Shown here one piece after another: positions 16,848-25,351 of a stretch of 64,000 nt of DNA (position 1 is its first letter; each line of letters starts with the position of its first letter). The DNA comes from Desulfobacteraceae bacterium (GTDB taxonomy: Bacteria; Desulfobacterota; Desulfobacteria; Desulfobacterales; Desulfosarcinaceae), in assembly GCA_050302315.1 (NCBI GenBank), contig JBNLAV010000087.1, forward strand, positions 1,357 to 65,356, read 5' to 3'. The notes beneath the pieces were generated by a model that saw only the letters and a list, made by a program, of their open reading frames with translations, searched no databases and had not been told where the DNA came from. Both the position numbers and the translations under genes were made by a program.

Positions 16848-17830
16848 TCGCGCAACTCCCTTCCGGTCAGGCGCAGAAAAACATCCTCCAGGTTACCCGT
16901 TCGAAAGAGGCACGCGGCCGAGCAGAACTTCTCCCGCACCTCCTTCTCCAGCGCCCCGTTGGCCCGGGTATAGATGATGATACGCCCGCCAAGATCGTCA
17001 TGCTTCACCTTGCGATCCTGGATGTAGGTTTTAAGGTCCTCGTCCGGCGACTCTATCTCGATGACGCTTTCGGCCGCGTGCTCTGCGATCAGATCCCGGG
17101 GCCGGCCCTGGGCGATGATCCGGCCGTGGTCCATGATCAGCAACCGGTCGCACAGGCTCTCGGCTTCGTCCATGTAGTGGGTGGTCAGCAGCATGGTCAG
17201 ACCGCGCTTTTTCAGTTCGAACAGCCGGTTCCACAATTGGTGCCGGGACTGGGGGTCCAGGCCCGTGGTGGGCTCGTCCAAAATGAGCAGTTCGGGATCC
17301 GACACCAGGGCCCGCGCAAGCTGCAGCCGCCGGGCCAGCCCGCCGGAGAGCTCCGCGACCTTGGCATGGCGCTTTTGGGTCAGTGCGAAAAAAGCCAGCA
17401 ATTCTTCGGTCCGCTCCCCGGCACGGGACCGGTCCATTTCAAAGTAACGCGCATAGAGCCGCAGGTTCTGCTCCACGGTCAAGTCCGGGTCCAGGGTATT
17501 CTCCTGCTGGCACACCCCCAGCCGGCTGCGGATCGCACGCCAATGGCTGACGACATCCAGGCCGAAGATTTTCATGCAGCCGCTGGAGACCGGCGAAAAA
17601 CCGTACATCATGCGGATAGCCGAGGTTTTACCGGCGCCGTTGGGTCCCAGCAGCCCGAAAAACTCACCGTTCTCCACCTCGAAGCGCACGCCGTCCACGG
17701 CCACGAAATCGCCGTAGCGCTTGACCACGTCCAGGGCCTCAATGATCTTATAGTCCCGGATCCGGCCGCGATCCACGGCGCCGGAATGTGCATGGGCATC
17801 GATAACCGCGTTTGCCTGCATTTCAACCAT
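16844..17830 (-). CDS. ABC exporter ATP-binding protein (NodI/DrrA-like)
   Basis: Walker A GPNGAGKTS, signature LSGGLARRLQLARAL, Walker B LLILDEPTTGLD. The start is uncertain (ATG at 17830, 17821 or 17866). Confidence 0.85.
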   Translation of the reverse strand: MVEMQANAVIDAHAHSGAVDRGRIRDYKIIEALDVVKRYGDFVAVDGVRFEVENGEFFGLLGPNGAGKTSAIRMMYGFSPVSSGCMKIFGLDVVSHWRAIRSRLGVCQQENTLDPDLTVEQNLRLYARYFEMDRSRAGERTEELLAFFALTQKRHAKVAELSGGLARRLQLARALVSDPELLILDEPTTGLDPQSRHQLWNRLFELKKRGLTMLLTTHYMDEAESLCDRLLIMDHGRIIAQGRPRDLIAEHAAESVIEIESPDEDLKTYIQDRKVKHDDLGGRIIIYTRANGALEKEVREKFCSAACLFRTGNLEDVFLRLTGRELRE

Positions 17831-18084
17831 GTCCGTCGCTCCTGGAAAAGTTTTAACCATTTCCATGTTTTCAATTTTGGACAGTATACGCGCAACTTCG
17901 TGATTGCACGAACCCAATTAGAGCTCGTAACTATAGTGGAGCATTTTATCTTACGTCACCAGAGACATAAATAAGTCTAAGTTCAATCGCTCATTCGTAG
18001 TTACTTATATGTTTATAGACGTTCCTTTGGGTACAATAGCCAGCAGATAATCAATAATCAAGGTTTGCCCCTCAATCAGACCCG

Positions 18085-18564
18085 TCAGGAAATCTTTACG
18101 GGAATATAAATATCGACTTCCGCATTCACTCCTTGTTGGCAGCGATCATCATAGAGTTCAAATTCAGCGGTTTCAGCACGCGTATATTTTGAATTTGGGA
18201 GCCACTGCTGATAGATATATTTTGAAGTTTCCTGGATCGAGCGAGGCATCTCGCCGCGGGCTGTGAATACGGCATATGCGGCGGAAGGGATCGACCTGCA
18301 GACCATGTTCTTTGGTATATTCTCGCTACTTGTCACCTCTGCCCCTATCAGGTACACAAAGCTTCCATCCGACTGAAAATCCATACTAATTCCTAAAACA
18401 GTATCAGGAACCTTTTTATTGGGGATGTTGCCTAAAGTGCCGTTTTGCAAAACTTCCCCCCAAAACTTGGGAATCTCACCGAAATCCGCTTCATTGGACA
18501 AAGTTGTTTTCAATTCCACCCCGATGACGGTAAATGGTTCTTTTTCAATGATTCGATGCTCCAT
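18085..18564 (-). CDS. GyrI-like small-molecule-binding domain protein (AraC effector-binding / SOUL-like fold)
   Basis: MEHRIIEKEPFTVIGVELKTT..FGEIPKFWGE..YAVFTARG..IQETSKYIYQQWLPNS..ELYD is the usual GyrI-like pattern. Lies in the AT-rich island. Confidence 0.7.
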   Translation of the reverse strand: MEHRIIEKEPFTVIGVELKTTLSNEADFGEIPKFWGEVLQNGTLGNIPNKKVPDTVLGISMDFQSDGSFVYLIGAEVTSSENIPKNMVCRSIPSAAYAVFTARGEMPRSIQETSKYIYQQWLPNSKYTRAETAEFELYDDRCQQGVNAEVDIYIPVKIS

Positions 18565-18781
18565 AACATTCTCCTCCTGGCAGTGGCCTCAGGCGCAAGT
18601 GGACCGGGTCGCCTGCAGGCGGATTAACCTTCGAATTCTTCATTGAATAATTTAACTCAATAAATAGCTCCGATTGTTAGGGCAGCACTTCATTAATTGT
18701 TTGAGCAGTCGAAACCGCTTCATGTCAGGGGCAACAGAACCCTCACCGCCCTTGAACATGTTTGTCCTGAAGCTTATTCGT

Positions 18782-19081
18782 TCATGCGACCTTAAATATG
18801 GAACAGGTACTGACGCCATGGGCATATAACAATCCGTTTTTATCTTTCAGTTTACCTTCAACTGAAGCAATCTTCTTACCCACATGTAAGGGACTTGCTT
18901 CGCATTTCAATATGCCGGTGTCGGCTGTTACTGGTTTTATAAAATTCACCTTGATCTCGATTGTCGTGCAGCTGACGCCCGATGGAAGCGTTGATAAAAC
19001 TGAAGACGTCATAGCAGTATCAAGCAAGGTAGAAAGAATTCCGCCATGAACTGTTGCAATTAGTTCTTTCCATTTTACATC
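18782..19081 (-). pseudogene. 5'-truncated PaaI/hotdog-fold thioesterase fragment
   Basis: The frame reads DVKWKELIATVHGGILSTLLDTAMTSS..GKKIASVEGKLKDKNGLLYAHGVSTCSIF. An in-frame TAG at 19082-19084 sits only 11 codons upstream of the VHGG motif, and no ATG/GTG start lies before it. The usual ~45-60 N-terminal residues are missing. Confidence 0.55.
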
Positions 19082-19188
19082 CTAAGACCACTAATCGTCC
19101 CGCATTATTTGAGCTGTCAAAACACTGACGTATTTCTCACCTGACGGTGTGTAGCGGCAGCGGAACACCGCCTATGCGCAGAATATGA

Positions 19189-19551
19189 TTAAGTGATTTT
19201 TTGTGGTTGTTTATTATAACCCTTCTCACCATATGGTTTTAGCCTATCGGTCCATAGCTCCTCAAGAAACCGGAGATCCTCAGCGGGATCATAACTCGGA
19301 TCATCCAATGGTTTAAGTATTTCAAGCTCTTCAAAAACAAACGCCTCAGGGCCGAATTCCTTCCATTCTTCCTGTAACACAACATTTCGGCAGTTACCCA
19401 TCTTCAACTCAGTTTTAAAGCGATTCAGTATTGCCGGTAAATTGGAACTTGAACCAATTAGCATTTTACCATTGACCTTGTTGATAATCTGGAAGATACC
19501 CATTGGACGTGGAGTATCTTTGTATTCCTTTATCTTGGCTTTCCTATCCAT
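19189..19551 (-). CDS. Small GIY-YIG nuclease-superfamily protein
   Basis: GIFQIINKVNGKMLIGSSSNLPAILNRFK..FVFEELE fits the GIY..YIG..R/N..E pattern. ATG at 19551 lies 6 nt after AAAGGA. Confidence 0.6.
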   Translation of the reverse strand: MDRKAKIKEYKDTPRPMGIFQIINKVNGKMLIGSSSNLPAILNRFKTELKMGNCRNVVLQEEWKEFGPEAFVFEELEILKPLDDPSYDPAEDLRFLEELWTDRLKPYGEKGYNKQPQKIT

Positions 19552-19643
19552 TTTCATTCCTTTGGTAATTGTAACACTTAGCGCTGCGAATAGCCGGGGC
19601 AAATGAATCGCAGCGGAATCTGCATCCGGGTTAGTTTTCTATG

Positions 19644-20489
19644 TCAGGCTTTCTTTGCCATAAAAATCGCGGCTCGTTCCAACCCGGCATCACGATGGAC
19701 TTCGCCTTTGTGAAATTCCTCGCTTTCAATCGTTGCCAAAAGGTTACGCCGCTGAGGATAGCGGACAAATATAAAGTGATCCCAGCTGTCTGTGAGCATA
19801 CAATCCTCGCGACTGCCAAATAGGCAAATGGGGTTTCCGCCATAAACGGGGTATGCACCTCTACGCAGCAGTTCAAATCCAGCAATCTTGGAATAGCGCT
19901 GATAGGCTTCCCTGCCGCTGATCTTTTTGGCGTCATCGCCAAAATCCTTATATTCTGCAACTGGCTTGTATTTATTCAGGTTGTAGACAAAAAGCGGCTC
20001 GTCAAGATCTTGATCTCTTGCCACTGCCATTTGACTTTCATCAGGCCAAACAGCGACATTGTCAGCTTTCCAAGTAGCCGCCGGTATGCCTCTATCGATG
20101 ATACCTTTGAACAACCGAACAATCCATGAGATACGCTTTATCAAATGAAAAGTAATCGATGGTTCCGGCGTAATCGCAAGAACAAAATACTCAGTGCAAA
20201 CCTTCTTTAGTGCATCATCGAAGGCCGAAATAAAGTCGAAAGCCGCTTGGATCGATGAAAATTGGTCGATGACAATTTCATCTACCTGCATCCCCTCCCG
20301 AGCGACAGGATCGGCTTTAACTCGAAACAACCTTTTGCAACCAAAACTATCTTTGCTCTCCTTTAACCAGTTGTCATAGCCCTTTGAATCACTAATTTTG
20401 AGGTGATAGACAAAGGCCAGCCTTCTTACACCTGCATCTTCTGCGGCTTTGCGGCAGAACTCTTTATCTATTGAGAGGGGCATATACAT
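19644..20489 (-). CDS. Hypothetical protein, possibly tandem DUF1330-like (dimeric alpha/beta-barrel) domains
   Basis: 281-aa ORF in the AT-rich island. C-terminal WDHFIFVRYPQRRNLLATIESEEFHKGEVHRDAGLERAAIFMA resembles DUF1330. Weak assignment. Confidence 0.35.
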   Translation of the reverse strand: MYMPLSIDKEFCRKAAEDAGVRRLAFVYHLKISDSKGYDNWLKESKDSFGCKRLFRVKADPVAREGMQVDEIVIDQFSSIQAAFDFISAFDDALKKVCTEYFVLAITPEPSITFHLIKRISWIVRLFKGIIDRGIPAATWKADNVAVWPDESQMAVARDQDLDEPLFVYNLNKYKPVAEYKDFGDDAKKISGREAYQRYSKIAGFELLRRGAYPVYGGNPICLFGSREDCMLTDSWDHFIFVRYPQRRNLLATIESEEFHKGEVHRDAGLERAAIFMAKKA

Positions 20490-20637
20490 TTCAATTCTTT
20501 ATTGAGGCCTGAACGTTCGCCCTCTCAGGAGAGCAGGGGATGACGACCTTGCCTGAGGCTGGTTATCACCAAACTGTGCATACGATACAGTGGCTCGACC
20601 CGGCGAATCTTGTGCATCGTGTTGTTCGGTGATTCTC

Positions 20638-20997
20638 TTATTCCTCGAGCCATTTATATGCTTGTTCCAAATTGTCAAAATACGCTTCAGCCTCTGATTT
20701 GATATTTGGCGTCATAAACTTTGCCGGTGCAACAAGCGCTGTCCTATAAAAGGAGGATTTGAGAACCTTATTATCTGTCAAATATTTCCTCAAAATCTTC
20801 AAACACTGAATTGATTCAAAATTGTGCTTATTCGTATCGAATATTAAAGCCAATTTATTTGAACTTCGAATCGTTTTCAATTCTTTATTAAACCTATCTT
20901 TCCACTTTTCAATCATATCTAAAGTTACAAAGTCGGGCATGGTTACCACATACCCGTTAATTCTTTTGTCGAAAATAAATTTTATTCTATTTTGCAT
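20638..20997 (-). CDS. Hypothetical protein (119 aa), possibly STAS/SpoIIAA-like fold
   Basis: ATG at 20997 (the tracked TTG at 21018 is less likely). Very AT-rich codon usage. No firm family. Confidence 0.4.
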   Translation of the reverse strand: MQNRIKFIFDKRINGYVVTMPDFVTLDMIEKWKDRFNKELKTIRSSNKLALIFDTNKHNFESIQCLKILRKYLTDNKVLKSSFYRTALVAPAKFMTPNIKSEAEAYFDNLEQAYKWLEE

Positions 20998-21118
20998 GTC
21001 AAGGTAACCGAACGGCAAGCATCATAGGTTGCATCAAACACAGCGGAATGCAATCCTATGAAAGACAGGATATATTTTTGCCTTATTTACAGGTTTATCG
21101 AATAGACCTGACAAAAGG

Positions 21119-21838
21119 TCAATCCCTGGATCCCCCGATCAGATTTTCGACGGCGTCGGTCACCCGTTCCAATTCATGCATCGATCCGATCTGCACGACC
21201 TGGATATCGCGAACGAGCTCGGGAATTTCTACGGAGCCCAGCAGCACCGGCAGGAGTTTTTTCGCGATGCTTTCATCGGTGGACAGCACGCGTGATAACA
21301 GGGCGCCCATGTACTCGGATATCCCGCTGGAAATGATGACGATGATCAGATCGGCGAAGGCAACGCTTTTTCCGATCTCATTCTGCCAATCGATGTCTGC
21401 GGACAAGCCCATCATGGCCGAAGCGGTGACACGATAGCCTTTGGCGATCAGCTGCGCCGCCAGGCGGCTGGCAACCATGCCGTCGGCGGTGGAGTGCGAT
21501 AGAAGTATGTTTCCTTTGGCGTTTGCCATTGCGGCTCTTTTTTCTTCGGTGTCGAATGTCAGCCAGTGGTTGAGGACCACCCGCTCCCCGTTCGCCATGT
21601 ACACTTCCGCCTTGATATTGAACTCGCCCCATCCGCTGCCTGAGAGTTTGAATTTGGAGTTTATGTCGGCAACGGAATGCTCGGGGTTCCGAAAGGTCGG
21701 GTGAAGGTGGTAGGTGACCGACTCGACCCGGCCGTCCTCGACAGCAGCGCCTTCCAGCCAGACGTTCCAGCCCCAAACGCGTTTGCCGCGGTATTCCGAA
21801 TTATTGACCAGCCTGATATCTTCCGGTGGATGTGCCAT
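21119..21838 (-). CDS. Prokaryotic YEATS-like (pYEATS) domain fused to a C-terminal TIR-like domain
   Basis: ATG at 21838 follows GAGGAAGG and lies 1 nt after the upstream stop. N-terminal RVWGWNVWLEG..VESVTYHLHPTFRNPEHSV..KFKLSGSGWGEFNIKAEVYMANGERVVLNHWLTF matches my recollection of the pYEATS motif (V.Y.LHP.F...GWG.F.I). C-terminal ILLSHSTADG..LAAQLIAKGYRV..ADLIIVIISSG..LLPVLLGSVEIPE is TIR/flavodoxin-like. Confidence 0.65.
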   Translation of the reverse strand: MAHPPEDIRLVNNSEYRGKRVWGWNVWLEGAAVEDGRVESVTYHLHPTFRNPEHSVADINSKFKLSGSGWGEFNIKAEVYMANGERVVLNHWLTFDTEEKRAAMANAKGNILLSHSTADGMVASRLAAQLIAKGYRVTASAMMGLSADIDWQNEIGKSVAFADLIIVIISSGISEYMGALLSRVLSTDESIAKKLLPVLLGSVEIPELVRDIQVVQIGSMHELERVTDAVENLIGGSRD

Positions 21839-21839
21839 T

Positions 21840-22529
21840 TTAACCTTCCTCAAGATCGACGGAAACCCACTGCGGGGTGTTGATGGATTCCGCCCGACCG
21901 GCGTTGGAGTGTGTCTGGACCTGGATCAGCGCCCCATCGGGAACATTGGGCAAATCCAGAAAGCACCCCCCGGGCTCACGGGAGAGAGCGGTTTCCTGCC
22001 AGTCCGAATAGGCCCCGTTGCTGTAAAAGCGATAGCGCCATTCTGCGTTGGTGCCGTAATCCAGGGCGATCTGGTCGGGCTGAATTTTCAATTTGAGCTG
22101 GCGTCCCGACTCCTTTTTCCAAATGCCCAACGTGGCCGAAAGACGGAGAAAGGCCGTCAGGCTGTCTCCGGGGTCGTAGGGGATGTATTCATTTTGCTGG
22201 TACATGCCGCCGGTTTCAACGCCGGATTCGATCAGGGCAATGGCGCGCATGTTGCGCCCCCTGGCGTGCCCGTATTCGTCCTGCACCCACTGGTGGGTGG
22301 TCCAGCCACCGTTGGCCAATTGTTCCCGGCGGGTCATCAGGGCGATGAGCGCGTCGCTCTCCTCGATCAGCCTTCTGACTTCATCCGTCAGCGGACCGCC
22401 CCCCAAAGCTGCACCGGTGGCAAATTCGAGGCCGTGGCTGCGAAGCAGTCCTTCGACACGATTGGCCAGGTGTCGATCAGGGGAATCAAAATCATCCGAA
22501 AAATGATAGGAGACGAAGATTTTTTGCAT
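21840..22529 (-). CDS. TIR-domain protein with unassigned beta-rich C-terminal domain
   Basis: ATG at 22529. KIFVSYHFSDD..LLRSHGLEF..LIEESDALIALMT..HQWVQDEYGHA..RAIALIE matches bacterial TIR/TIR_2 core motifs, including a W...E candidate catalytic Glu. The last ~85 aa (RQLKLKIQPDQIALDYG..VQTHSNAGRAESINTPQWVSVDLEEG) are unassigned. Confidence 0.7.
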   Translation of the reverse strand: MQKIFVSYHFSDDFDSPDRHLANRVEGLLRSHGLEFATGAALGGGPLTDEVRRLIEESDALIALMTRREQLANGGWTTHQWVQDEYGHARGRNMRAIALIESGVETGGMYQQNEYIPYDPGDSLTAFLRLSATLGIWKKESGRQLKLKIQPDQIALDYGTNAEWRYRFYSNGAYSDWQETALSREPGGCFLDLPNVPDGALIQVQTHSNAGRAESINTPQWVSVDLEEG

Positions 22530-22614
22530 AGCTTTTCTCAGATTCGGATTTGCATTTAAAATAAAAGAATGGGTGCGCAACGCCTGAGTATCAGGAAACC
22601 GGCGTTTGACTCTA

Positions 22615-22644
22615 AAAATACGGCAAACCAAAGGGTTGTGTCAA
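22615..22644 (-). promoter_or_regulatory. Candidate sigma70-type promoter of the TIR operon
   Basis: Minus strand: TTGACA (22644-22639), 18-nt spacer, TATTTT (22620-22615), about 85 nt upstream of the ATG at 22529. Confidence 0.35.
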
Positions 22645-22787: not shown

Positions 22788-22823
22788 AATAAAAAAGGGA
22801 ACCGCCAACCGGACGGTTCCCTT
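22788..22823 (-). terminator. Rho-independent terminator after rpsI
   Basis: Minus strand: GGGAACCG / 9-nt loop / CGGTTCCC, followed by TTTTTTATT. Begins about 25 nt after the rpsI stop. Confidence 0.8.
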
Positions 22824-23778: not shown

Positions 23779-23955
23779 GGGAAAAATACGAGATTTGGGC
23801 GAATTTTCCTTGCGGTCTGCTCCTGCCGGTCCCATCTGAAGCGCGGCGATACGGTGACTATCTTTTTGACATCGCGGGCCAAAAATGATTTGTGGATGCC
23901 AGCGCACCGGTTGTACCGGTGTATGACAAACAAAACGAAAATTCAAGAACGGATC

Positions 23956-24573
23956 ATGGATCAATCTGCGGACCATCTTGAAATCGAGGTCAAATTCCAC
24001 TTGAAGCAGCCCGGAGCGCTGCACCGGCACCTCATGGACCTGGGGGCGACAGCCCGGCCTGAACGCTTTGAGCGCAACTTACGGTTCGAAGACGCGGACC
24101 ACTCCCTCAAAGCGGGCCGGAAGCTCTTGCGCCTGCGCCACGACGATACCTGCCGTCTCACGTTTAAATCCAGGCCTTCGCCCATGAAAACGGAATGCAA
24201 GGTGTACCGCGAATTGGAGGTCACGGTCAGCGACTTCGACACCATGCAGGGCATTCTCAACGGGTTGGGATTCAAAGCGGTGCAAACCTATGAAAAACGT
24301 CGGCGGATCTTGTCCTGGAACCGTGTGGAATTGTGCATCGACACCATGCCCTATGGCACTTTTCTCGAGATTGAGGGGGCCGAGGCCGATATCAGGGCGG
24401 CGGCCGCGCTGTTGGGCCTGCCCTGGGAGAAGCGCATCCTGGCCAACTACCTGGCGATCTTCGAGGTGCTGCGATCGCGGTACAACCTGCCCTTTAACGA
24501 CGTGACGTTTGAGAACTTCGCACAATATCCCGCCGACATCACCCCCCTGCTGGACGAATTGGAGGCGGGTTGA
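23956..24573 (+). CDS. CYTH-domain protein (class IV adenylate cyclase / triphosphate tunnel metalloenzyme family)
   Basis: LEIEVKFHL (the ExExK motif), LRLRHDD..LTFK, ELEVTVSD, ELCIDTMPYGTFLEIEG. The start is uncertain (23956 or 23923). Confidence 0.75.
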   Translation: MDQSADHLEIEVKFHLKQPGALHRHLMDLGATARPERFERNLRFEDADHSLKAGRKLLRLRHDDTCRLTFKSRPSPMKTECKVYRELEVTVSDFDTMQGILNGLGFKAVQTYEKRRRILSWNRVELCIDTMPYGTFLEIEGAEADIRAAAALLGLPWEKRILANYLAIFEVLRSRYNLPFNDVTFENFAQYPADITPLLDELEAG

Positions 24574-24583
24574 CCGGATCGCC

Positions 24584-25351
24584 ATGCCCCATGCGACCAT
24601 CAAATCGATCCGTTTCTTTTGCCTGAATCTGCGCTTCGGCCTGGCCGATGACGGCCCGGACGGCTGGACCCATCGGAAGCGGTGCTACCCTGCCCTGCTC
24701 GAACAGTACCCCTGCGACTTTTACGGCTTTCAGGAGGCCAATGATTTCCAGGTCACCTATCTTCAGGAGTTGCTGCCCGATCATGGCGTGATCGGCCGTC
24801 GATCCCCTGCGCCTGACCGCTGGCAGCACAATGTGATTTTCCATCACCGGCGCTGGAAGTGTATGCACAGCGATCATTTCTACCTCAGCCGCACGCCGGA
24901 TGTGCCCAGCAAGTTTCCCCGGTCCAAATGGCCGCGCCAGTGCACCATCGGTGTCTTCCAAAGCGACGACACGCAGGTCACCGCCATCAATACCCATTTT
25001 GATTTCGAACCGGATATTCAGCGCAAGAGCGCTTTGTTGATTGTCAAACGCCTGCAGGATGTGGCGCCCGAAGGTCCCGCGGTGCTCATGGGCGACCTCA
25101 ACGCCGGCCCCGGGTCCAGTTGCATTGAAGCGCTCACCAGCCCGGCTTCGGGTTTCAAGAGTGCATTCGGGGCATCGTCCCGGGGCACTTTTCATGGATT
25201 CAGCGGCGTCGCCCGGGGGCCTAATATCGATTGGATTCTGTATCGCGGCGCTTTGGAAAGGCGTGATGCGGTCGTGGCGACGGATCGATACGACGGACGG
25301 TACCCGTCGGACCATTTTCCGCTGACCGCTTCGTTCAGGCCGGTCGCGTAG
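24584..25351 (+). CDS. Endonuclease/exonuclease/phosphatase (EEP) family protein
   Basis: FFCLNLRFG, GFQEAN, NTHFDF, LMGDLNA and the terminal SDHFPLTASF, the EEP catalytic motifs. Confidence 0.8.
   Translation: MPHATIKSIRFFCLNLRFGLADDGPDGWTHRKRCYPALLEQYPCDFYGFQEANDFQVTYLQELLPDHGVIGRRSPAPDRWQHNVIFHHRRWKCMHSDHFYLSRTPDVPSKFPRSKWPRQCTIGVFQSDDTQVTAINTHFDFEPDIQRKSALLIVKRLQDVAPEGPAVLMGDLNAGPGSSCIEALTSPASGFKSAFGASSRGTFHGFSGVARGPNIDWILYRGALERRDAVVATDRYDGRYPSDHFPLTASFRPVA

Follow-up and report, generated by a model that had tools for sequence, protein, structure and literature searches.

What does a bacterial TIR gene do when its constant companion is a gene for a YEATS-type reader domain? The question is raised by two adjacent genes in a 64,000-nucleotide stretch of a Desulfobacteraceae genome (contig JBNLAV010000087.1, positions 1,357 to 65,356), which we call the window, meaning the whole stretch that was analysed. 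The first of them (gene 1) encodes a TIR-type domain followed by a predicted beta-sandwich, and the second (gene 2) a prokaryotic YEATS-like (pYEATS) domain followed by another TIR domain. Together with their relatives they form a coherent cassette that is widespread across phyla, and the pair is probably a conflict or defence module. The fuller picture, that of a self-contained, horizontally mobile TIR conflict module, most likely anti-phage and working by the mechanism proposed below, we regard as an even call.

TIR enzymes are central to bacterial, plant and animal immunity, and new types of Thoeris are being added rapidly. In the literature examined, pYEATS is a partner domain that the tested TIR and Thoeris systems do not use, and in about half of the contexts seen the pair has no separate effector. 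An invariant cage of the acyl-lysine type is here locked to a predicted enzyme that would cleave nicotinamide adenine dinucleotide (NAD+), which makes the ligand of a prokaryotic YEATS domain directly testable. If a pYEATS reader does gate the TIR, this would be the first bacterial immune sensor in which a chromatin-reader fold makes activation depend on a post-translational mark or metabolite, and it would point to a prokaryotic immune origin of the eukaryotic YEATS domain. Because the pair is small (1.4 kb), autonomous in several genomes and present, in a version of its own, in a cultured isolate, Chitinophaga tropicalis ysch24 (locus L034), it is also tractable.

Conservation of the gene pair

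The two genes and a candidate promoter lie in the window as follows.

Gene 1: 22529-21840 (ATG at 22529, TAA at 21840), minus strand; 229 aa, starting MQKIFVSY; 39 homologues; proposed catalytic subunit.
Gene 2: 21838-21119 (ATG at 21838, TGA at 21119), minus strand; 239 aa, starting MAHPPED; 36 homologues; pYEATS-TIR fusion.
Promoter candidate (weak): 22615..22644, minus strand; sigma-70-like TTGACA-18-TATTTT with 10/12 consensus matches, 86 nt upstream of the gene 1 ATG.

The original prediction, made from the DNA letters alone, described two co-directional minus-strand genes 1 nt apart, the second with its own Shine-Dalgarno sequence, and this layout is confirmed. The junction reads GAGGAAGGT-TAA-A-ATG, so that the reading frames abut and the GAGGA Shine-Dalgarno of gene 2 sits within the 3' end of gene 1, and the two genes appear translationally coupled. 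All of the motifs quoted in that prediction are present as well (KIFVSYHFSDD, ALIALMT and WVQDE in gene 1; WGWNVWLEG, YHLHPTF, GWGEFNIKAEV and SEYMGALL in gene 2). The promoter placed upstream of gene 1 fares less well: the site exists at 22644-22615, but as a promoter it is a weak call, because the 3-kb region holds five sites of that quality against 2.3 +/- 1.5 in shuffles.

Homologues of the gene 1 protein and of the gene 2 protein were found on contigs in common. In 29 of 29 distinct pairs, found on unrelated contigs, gene 1 is followed directly on the same strand by a pYEATS gene whose frame overlaps or abuts its own, a pairing in constant order that is far beyond chance and that bears out the expected adjacency across genomes. 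The hosts belong to at least seven phyla and include Planctomycetota, Nitrospira, several Proteobacteria, Verrucomicrobiota, Acidobacteriota and Bacteroidota; the annotated source of the window proteins' relatives is Desulfosarcina. The two genes also diverge together, their pairwise identities being correlated (Mantel r = 0.65, a value reached by 0 of 2000 permutations), and their families are alike in size (210 representatives of the gene 1 C-terminal domain and 318 pYEATS clusters). Outside the pattern stand a Geobacter locus without a pYEATS gene (L027), a locus with a gene 1 fragment only (L037) and one that ends at a contig edge (L030).

The second TIR domain is a less constant part of the arrangement. 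In a more distant clade gene 1 is partnered by pYEATS alone, as a protein of about 100 aa, and this is the commonest partner form: the best 120 of 318 profile matches are all 96-124 aa long. Since gene1-linker-TIR_2 (P0088) and TIR_2-gene1 fusions (P0134, P0140, P0156, P0184 and P0185) exist, an extra TIR may also be tied to gene 1. With most partners bare and such fusions rare, the conserved unit is a TIR-sandwich protein plus a pYEATS protein, to which the second TIR is an optional add-on. What had been described as a unit of TIR and pYEATS-TIR proteins therefore holds for the adjacency of gene 1 and pYEATS, but not for the second TIR, which is dispensable.

A conserved third gene was looked for behind pYEATS and rejected: several loci do have a gene of 226-245 aa there, but those of different clades bear no relation to one another. 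At L023:6030-7401, in a metagenome-assembled genome of Gammaproteobacteria, the pYEATS-TIR gene is split over two reading frames, through a frameshift that would make it a pseudogene or through an error in the assembly.

Domains and predicted sites of the two proteins

The following features of the two proteins are referred to below; AF2 denotes AlphaFold2.

pYEATS domain of gene 2, aa 9-95: 21554..21814, minus strand; from Pfam, Foldseek and sequence alignment; conserved aromatic cage H46, T48, F49, W70, G71 and F73.
TIR_2 domain of gene 2, aa 109-235: 21134..21514, minus strand; TIR_2 E = 4.5e-12, 46.9 bits (cut-off 28), aa 111-219.
Leu180 codon CTG of gene 2: 21299..21301, minus strand; at the TIR catalytic-Glu position, opposite gene 1 Glu85 in the hhalign register.
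TIR-type domain of gene 1, aa 1-137: 22119..22529, minus strand; from the TIR_2 profile, hhalign and Foldseek.
Glu85 codon GAA of gene 1, WVQDE motif: 22275..22277, minus strand; predicted catalytic Glu, from conservation and alignment to the TIR_2 S-x-W-x-x-x-E position.
C-terminal domain of gene 1, aa 142-229: 21843..22106, minus strand; eight-strand beta-sandwich by DSSP on the AF2 model.

The pYEATS identity of the first part of gene 2, which had initially been proposed from the letters alone, is well founded, as the protein matches Pfam pYEATS (PF20305) at E = 2.3e-22 (79.1 bits, cut-off 26.9, aa 24-94) and the eukaryotic YEATS family PF03366 at E = 8.7e-13 (48.5 bits, cut-off 22). Its AF2 model, computed with 34 homologues, has a mean predicted local distance difference test score (pLDDT) of 81, rising to about 90 over aa 11-95. 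When the model is compared with the PDB by Foldseek, the top matches are all eukaryotic YEATS structures (GAS41, Yaf9, YEATS2, AF9 and Taf14; E = 1e-7 to 3e-6), with a target-normalised template modelling score of up to 0.67, and by this model the domain has the YEATS fold. In phmmer searches of the PDB, YHLHPTF and GWGEF align residue by residue with Taf14 and Sas5 (E = 7.5e-8 to 1e-6). In Taf14 and AF9 the YEATS motifs LHPTF and GWG supply the residues between which the acyl-lysine amide is stacked and to which it is hydrogen-bonded; the Taf14 cage residues we take to be H59, T61, F62, W81 and G82, and the predicted cage of pYEATS matches this eukaryotic pocket.

Across 60 of 60 unique pYEATS sequences W22, W24, W27, Y43, L45, H46, F49, F63, G69, W70, G71 and F73 are invariant, and residue 48 is T or S. 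Such an invariant pocket argues for a ligand that is chemically constant rather than a fast-evolving phage protein, and the mean pairwise identity of pYEATS, at 44% higher than the 35% of gene 1, is consistent with this. That pYEATS regulates through its canonical pocket has, on these alignments, somewhat more in its favour than against it. With the eukaryotic readers (Taf14, AF9, Yaf9 and GAS41/YEATS4) the domain has in common the fold and the LHPTF and GWGEF cage motifs; unlike them, it has an extra invariant W-x-W-x-x-W strand, is bacterial, has no chromatin context and is genetically locked to a TIR enzyme.

In the second half of gene 2, Leu180 occupies the position of the catalytic Glu. 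Among pYEATS-TIR proteins this position holds E in about 30 of 48 and otherwise Q, K, N, A or Y, and in the clade closest to the window it holds V, L or M; the gene 2 TIR is predicted to be non-catalytic in the window lineage. The divergence that had been claimed for it is therefore real in this protein, which matches TIR_2 at 46.9 bits with Leu in place of Glu, but it is not a trait of the family, most of which keeps the Glu.

The N-terminal domain of gene 1 appears, from profiles and model, to be a divergent TIR. TIR_2 is matched at E <= 0.01 by 19 of 23 family members (best 1.8e-6), and hhalign pairs the domain with the gene 2 TIR at 95% probability (E = 2.7e-8), in a register that sets Glu85 of WVQDE opposite the TIR catalytic position and gene 2 Leu180. 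The AF2 model has a pLDDT of 89, and its top Foldseek matches are the SARM1 TIR and nucleoside 2-deoxyribosyltransferases (NDT). Of 177 unique homologues 175 retain Glu85, a count that is biased for the genome-collection loci, which were retrieved by a motif spanning the catalytic region; its conservation is the same in a search of 1.84 billion proteins queried by the C-terminal domain only. Both exceptions (P0184 and P0185) have acquired a second, canonical TIR_2 domain in front of the gene 1 part. As Glu85 is near-universal and lost only where another TIR is fused, gene 1 is very likely the catalytic member of the pair, in keeping with its first description as a TIR with a conserved Glu.

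The C-terminal 85 or so residues of gene 1 had been called beta-rich and unassignable. The first part holds, with eight strands in the model; the second can be revised to a putative fn3/Ig-like sandwich, for which profile and model give moderate support. No member of the family has a significant Pfam match over this domain (one weak Y_Y_Y and one weak BACON match were seen), nor has it a sequence match in the PDB. Its profile, run against the 1.84 billion proteins, yielded the 210 representatives, nearly all of them with the 225-240 aa architecture of gene 1, and weak multi-stretch matches (E = 1e-11 to 6e-8) to proteins of 7-12 fn3 repeats. The fold searches used whole gene 1 (PDB, BFVD), and their results are dominated by the N-terminal domain.

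Two proteins with parts of gene 1 deserve mention. P0210, a TIR_2-nSTAND1 protein of 676 aa, bears the gene 1 C-terminal sandwich at the end where STAND NTPases carry their sensor; among 65 of its TIR-nSTAND1 relatives from metagenomes, none has the sandwich domain and none a pYEATS neighbour. P0073 (320 aa) is 73% identical to gene 1 over the first ~105 residues and then continues in an unrelated region with a precomputed PF18318 match; it may result from chimeric assembly or from disruption of the gene.

Proposed mechanism, genomic company and alternatives

We propose that the gene 1 TIR would cleave NAD+ by means of Glu85, and that its C-terminal sandwich would be a docking or target-binding domain, most likely binding the pYEATS protein; it is the likeliest docking site because the domain is hardly ever found without a pYEATS gene behind it. 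Gene 2 would be the regulatory partner, its pYEATS domain using the aromatic cage, as eukaryotic acyl-lysine readers do, to bind a planar amide or an aromatic group that is chemically invariant, whether protein acyl-lysine, nicotinamide or an NAD+-derived nucleotide. The gene 2 TIR, with Leu180, may be a pseudo-enzyme that serves as a TIR-TIR assembly partner and helps to nucleate assembly, and ligand binding would drive this assembly and so switch gene 1 on. Since no effector is linked to the pair in the window, the simplest output there would be NAD+ depletion and abortive infection; beside TPR-S, SLATT, patatin or CHAT genes, the gene 1 TIR could instead make an ADP-ribose-derived signal for these effectors to receive. 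In its strict form, with pYEATS as a true reader of an acyl-lysine or planar-amide mark on a phage or host protein, of nicotinamide or of an NAD+-derived nucleotide that switches on a TIR NADase, the proposal is tentative and has a minor share of our confidence.

Several points weigh against this reading. What the analysis establishes are the identities of the domains, the conservation of residues, the strict linkage of the genes and their genomic company, whereas enzyme activity, complex formation with its contacts between the two TIR domains and between sandwich and pYEATS, ligand, trigger and phenotype are steps that we infer. PADLOC and NCBIfam give no meaningful match to either protein. 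The contexts examined come mostly from metagenome-assembled genomes, and the Glu85 count carries the retrieval bias given above. Near the window pair itself there are no defence genes, only a low-GC accessory stretch. Finally, window gene 1 scores 20.6 bits against Pfam TIR_2, below the cut-off of 28, and its Foldseek likeness to NDT and CMP-hydrolase enzymes, whose folds are related to that of TIR, about equals its likeness to TIR, so that its substrate could be a nucleotide instead of NAD+.

Flanking genes vary from locus to locus, which indicates that the pair is mobile. Carriage by phages or plasmids was considered and set aside, as no gene 1 relative was found in IMG/VR (phage) or PLSDB (plasmid) and no pYEATS relative in INPHARED (phage); because these collections gave none, it is the context that speaks for mobility. 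At L108:5812-7415, on the conjugative plasmid pSTA7437.01 of Stanieria cyanosphaera PCC 7437, a 144-aa gene annotated as pYEATS is followed 41 nt later by an ISAs1 transposase. This pYEATS gene is the sole plasmid match, has no gene 1 homologue beside it and may be what is left of a system that was disrupted.

In about half of the related loci the pair stands among TPR-S, TIR, SLATT, patatin and CHAT genes. The Pfam families counted over 124 neighbouring proteins from 20 genome loci were TPR-S (18), MAP3K_TRAF_bd (14), TIR_2 (14), Patatin (6), CHAT (3), nSTAND1 (2), CAP12/Pycsar TIR (2) and ThsB_TIR (2), and the PADLOC effector models that match these neighbours are TIR, phospholipase, PycTIR and ThsB. 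SLATT genes occur at L004 and L014, and on the flanks of another locus stand SIR2-TIR, ThsB-like and type I restriction genes. Elsewhere (the window, L008, L010, L012, L042 and the P0007 contig) the pair is alone among ordinary genes, and across the 64 kb of the window neither a TPR-S gene nor a further TIR gene is present. A setting in defence islands, one of the checks first suggested, is thus seen for about half of the relatives, which lie among conflict genes, but not for the window and several others, which lie among housekeeping genes.

This company can be read differently from our proposal. The pair could be a ThsB-like sensor or signal generator only, making an NAD+-derived messenger for effectors encoded elsewhere, in which case the window copy would be an orphan, or would rely on an unlinked effector and produce no output by itself. 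Directly upstream of gene 1 in seven loci (L017, L018, L020, L021, L029, L035 and L037) lies a MAP3K_TRAF_bd/TPR-S gene of 441-456 aa, 49-62% identical between phyla; about half of all pairs have a TPR-S gene within 6 kb; and beside the MAP3K_TRAF_bd/TPR-S gene stand TIR-FGE-sulfatase, TIR-nSTAND1-FGE, TIR-TPR or TIR-WD40 genes, in the same operons, as multiple ThsB genes would be. Thoeris types V-XI have been validated, and of these type VII (TIR with SLATT) and type VIII (TIR with a CMP hydrolase/TPR protein, ThsI) both respond to cyclic ADP-ribose made by the TIR (Yirmiya et al., 2025; bioRxiv 10.64898/2025.12.03.692087), as such a division of labour would have it. Against it, the pair also occurs alone in the unrelated housekeeping contexts just listed, the window with its lack of any TPR-S gene among them, and we consider this role possible but unlikely.

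Multi-TIR operons that lie on the pair's strand together with the 441-456 aa MAP3K_TRAF_bd/TPR-S gene are found at L017:1671-5924, L020:3328-5920 and L040:2357-8410. Their TIR genes are of the TIR_2-nSTAND1-FGE-sulfatase, TIR_2-FGE-sulfatase or TIR_2-WD40 type, and at L040 the TIR-WD40 gene overlaps the start of gene 1 by 4 nt.

The same comparison decides how the pair relates to Thoeris. Like types VII and VIII, it has in gene 1 a TIR with a conserved Glu in a small operon, and the pair of its relatives is often found in islands, sometimes in operons, with SLATT and TPR-S genes. Unlike Thoeris, the conserved pair comes without a recognised effector or signal-receptor gene, its obligate partner is pYEATS, the gene 1 TIR bears a beta-sandwich of its own, and no PADLOC Thoeris model matches. 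PADLOC and NCBIfam are blank around the pair in the window, in agreement with the earlier observation that no ThsA-like effector is adjacent, and because the window has no effector its pair is not Thoeris as defined. The label "not canonical Thoeris" is thereby upheld for the window, where a ThsA-type effector is missing, but it is too sweeping for the relatives, about half of which lie in loci resembling types VII and VIII. Neither the text nor the searched supplements of the study that validated types V-XI mention YEATS (Yirmiya et al., 2025; bioRxiv 10.64898/2025.12.03.692087).

A second alternative reverses the sign of the regulation that we propose. The pYEATS protein might be a brake or buffer that sets the activation threshold, by inhibiting the gene 1 TIR in the manner of an antitoxin or by soaking up the product that this TIR derives from NAD+. 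Most partners are bare pYEATS proteins of 100 aa with no output domain, a pocket invariant across phyla is easier to reconcile with a fixed small-molecule ligand than with phage proteins, which evolve fast, and the apparent translational coupling of the two genes would fit as well. Many lineages, however, fuse pYEATS to a TIR that keeps its Glu, which suggests an active signalling or effector role over pure inhibition, and a brake seems improbable to us.

It is more improbable still that gene 1 is an NDT- or CMP-hydrolase-type nucleoside or nucleotide N-glycosidase that depletes or alters the nucleotide pool. The equally good Foldseek matches to NDT and CMP hydrolase and the TIR_2 score below cut-off would favour it, as would a weak match of one family member to Pfam Nuc_deoxyrib_tr (E = 0.0026). 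That family, however, is matched by 1 of 23 members where TIR_2 is matched by 19, and the hhalign alignment to a bona fide TIR_2 domain brings the catalytic Glu into register. A role outside defence, such as metabolic or stress signalling that couples the protein acylation state to NAD+ turnover, would suit the loci among housekeeping genes, the host-like GC of the window pair directly downstream of rplM-rpsI and the acyl-lysine type of the pocket, but the patchy cross-phylum distribution, flanking genes that are never alike and the strong enrichment of conflict-system genes near the pairs make it very improbable.

Relation to other TIR systems and local setting

Full-text literature searches returned no paper on pYEATS or prokaryotic YEATS domains, and no experimental one. 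The abstract of a 2020 survey by Burroughs and Aravind reportedly names prokaryotic YEATS domains among predicted signal-sensing components, and that survey is said to be the probable source of the Pfam pYEATS family; the domain and its association with TIR have probably been noted already in comparative genomics. The use of TPR as a sensor of TIR signals has likewise been credited to a prediction of theirs (bioRxiv 10.64898/2025.12.03.692087, citing Burroughs and Aravind, 2020).

Among known systems, those that combine TIR and TPR proteins are instructive. The BcTir/Tpr defence pair works as a complex (Liu et al., 2023; bioRxiv 10.1101/2023.05.26.542521). The window pair resembles such systems, including those with the TPR-S scaffold (PF20308), in being a two-protein TIR module thought to form a complex and to act through NAD+ chemistry, and MAP3K_TRAF_bd/TPR-S genes are the commonest neighbours of its relatives. 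It differs in having no TPR protein and in using the beta-sandwich reader fold of pYEATS as the partner instead.

SARM1, TIR-STING and SPARTA are TIR NADases that need assembly for activity, and mixed active and inactive TIR pairs are known from SPARTA TIR-APAZ and from plant RRS1/RPS4. Likenesses to these are the catalytic Glu, a probable activation by oligomerisation and the combination of a dead with an active TIR; the putative fn3-like sandwich and pYEATS sensors and the split into two genes are differences. Among TIR conflict systems, the pair is set apart by its obligate pYEATS partner and its TIR-linked beta-sandwich.

In the window, the pair stands directly downstream of rplM-rpsI and has the following neighbours.

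Intrinsic terminator of the upstream rplM-rpsI operon: 22795..22823, minus strand; 12-bp stem with 7 GC pairs and a T-run; 5' boundary of the cassette.
Cass2/GyrI-like effector-binding protein: 18085-18564, minus strand; Pfam E = 6.8e-37; 2.5 kb from the pair.
137-aa open reading frame: 19189-19602, minus strand; N-terminus GIY-YIG-like in appearance, with no Pfam match.
281-aa open reading frame: 19644-20489, minus strand; weak DUF1330 match.
126-aa open reading frame: 20638-21018, minus strand; in the low-GC stretch, common only to the identical contig L015.
CYTH-domain protein: 23854-24573, plus strand; divergent from rplM-rpsI.
Exo_endo_phos family protein: 24509-25351, plus strand; after the CYTH gene and likewise divergent from rplM-rpsI.

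Directly downstream of the pair, positions 17500-21050 are occupied by a run of small minus-strand open reading frames with a GC content of 41-46%, which looks like an accessory insertion. The pair itself has 55-58% GC, against 41-46% in this stretch of 17.5-21 kb and 55-63% elsewhere in the window, so the original placement of the pair at the edge of an accessory island, yet with host-like GC, is accurate. The Cass2 match prompted the question of an integron gene cassette origin, which was rejected: there are no recurrent attC-like repeats in 17.9-21.2 kb and no integrase among the scanned open reading frames. At L010:4130-9755, one of the loci in which the pair is alone among ordinary genes, it has a CobN/Mg-chelatase-type gene on either side (580 aa and 749 aa) and may have inserted into or beside a cobalt/magnesium chelatase cluster.

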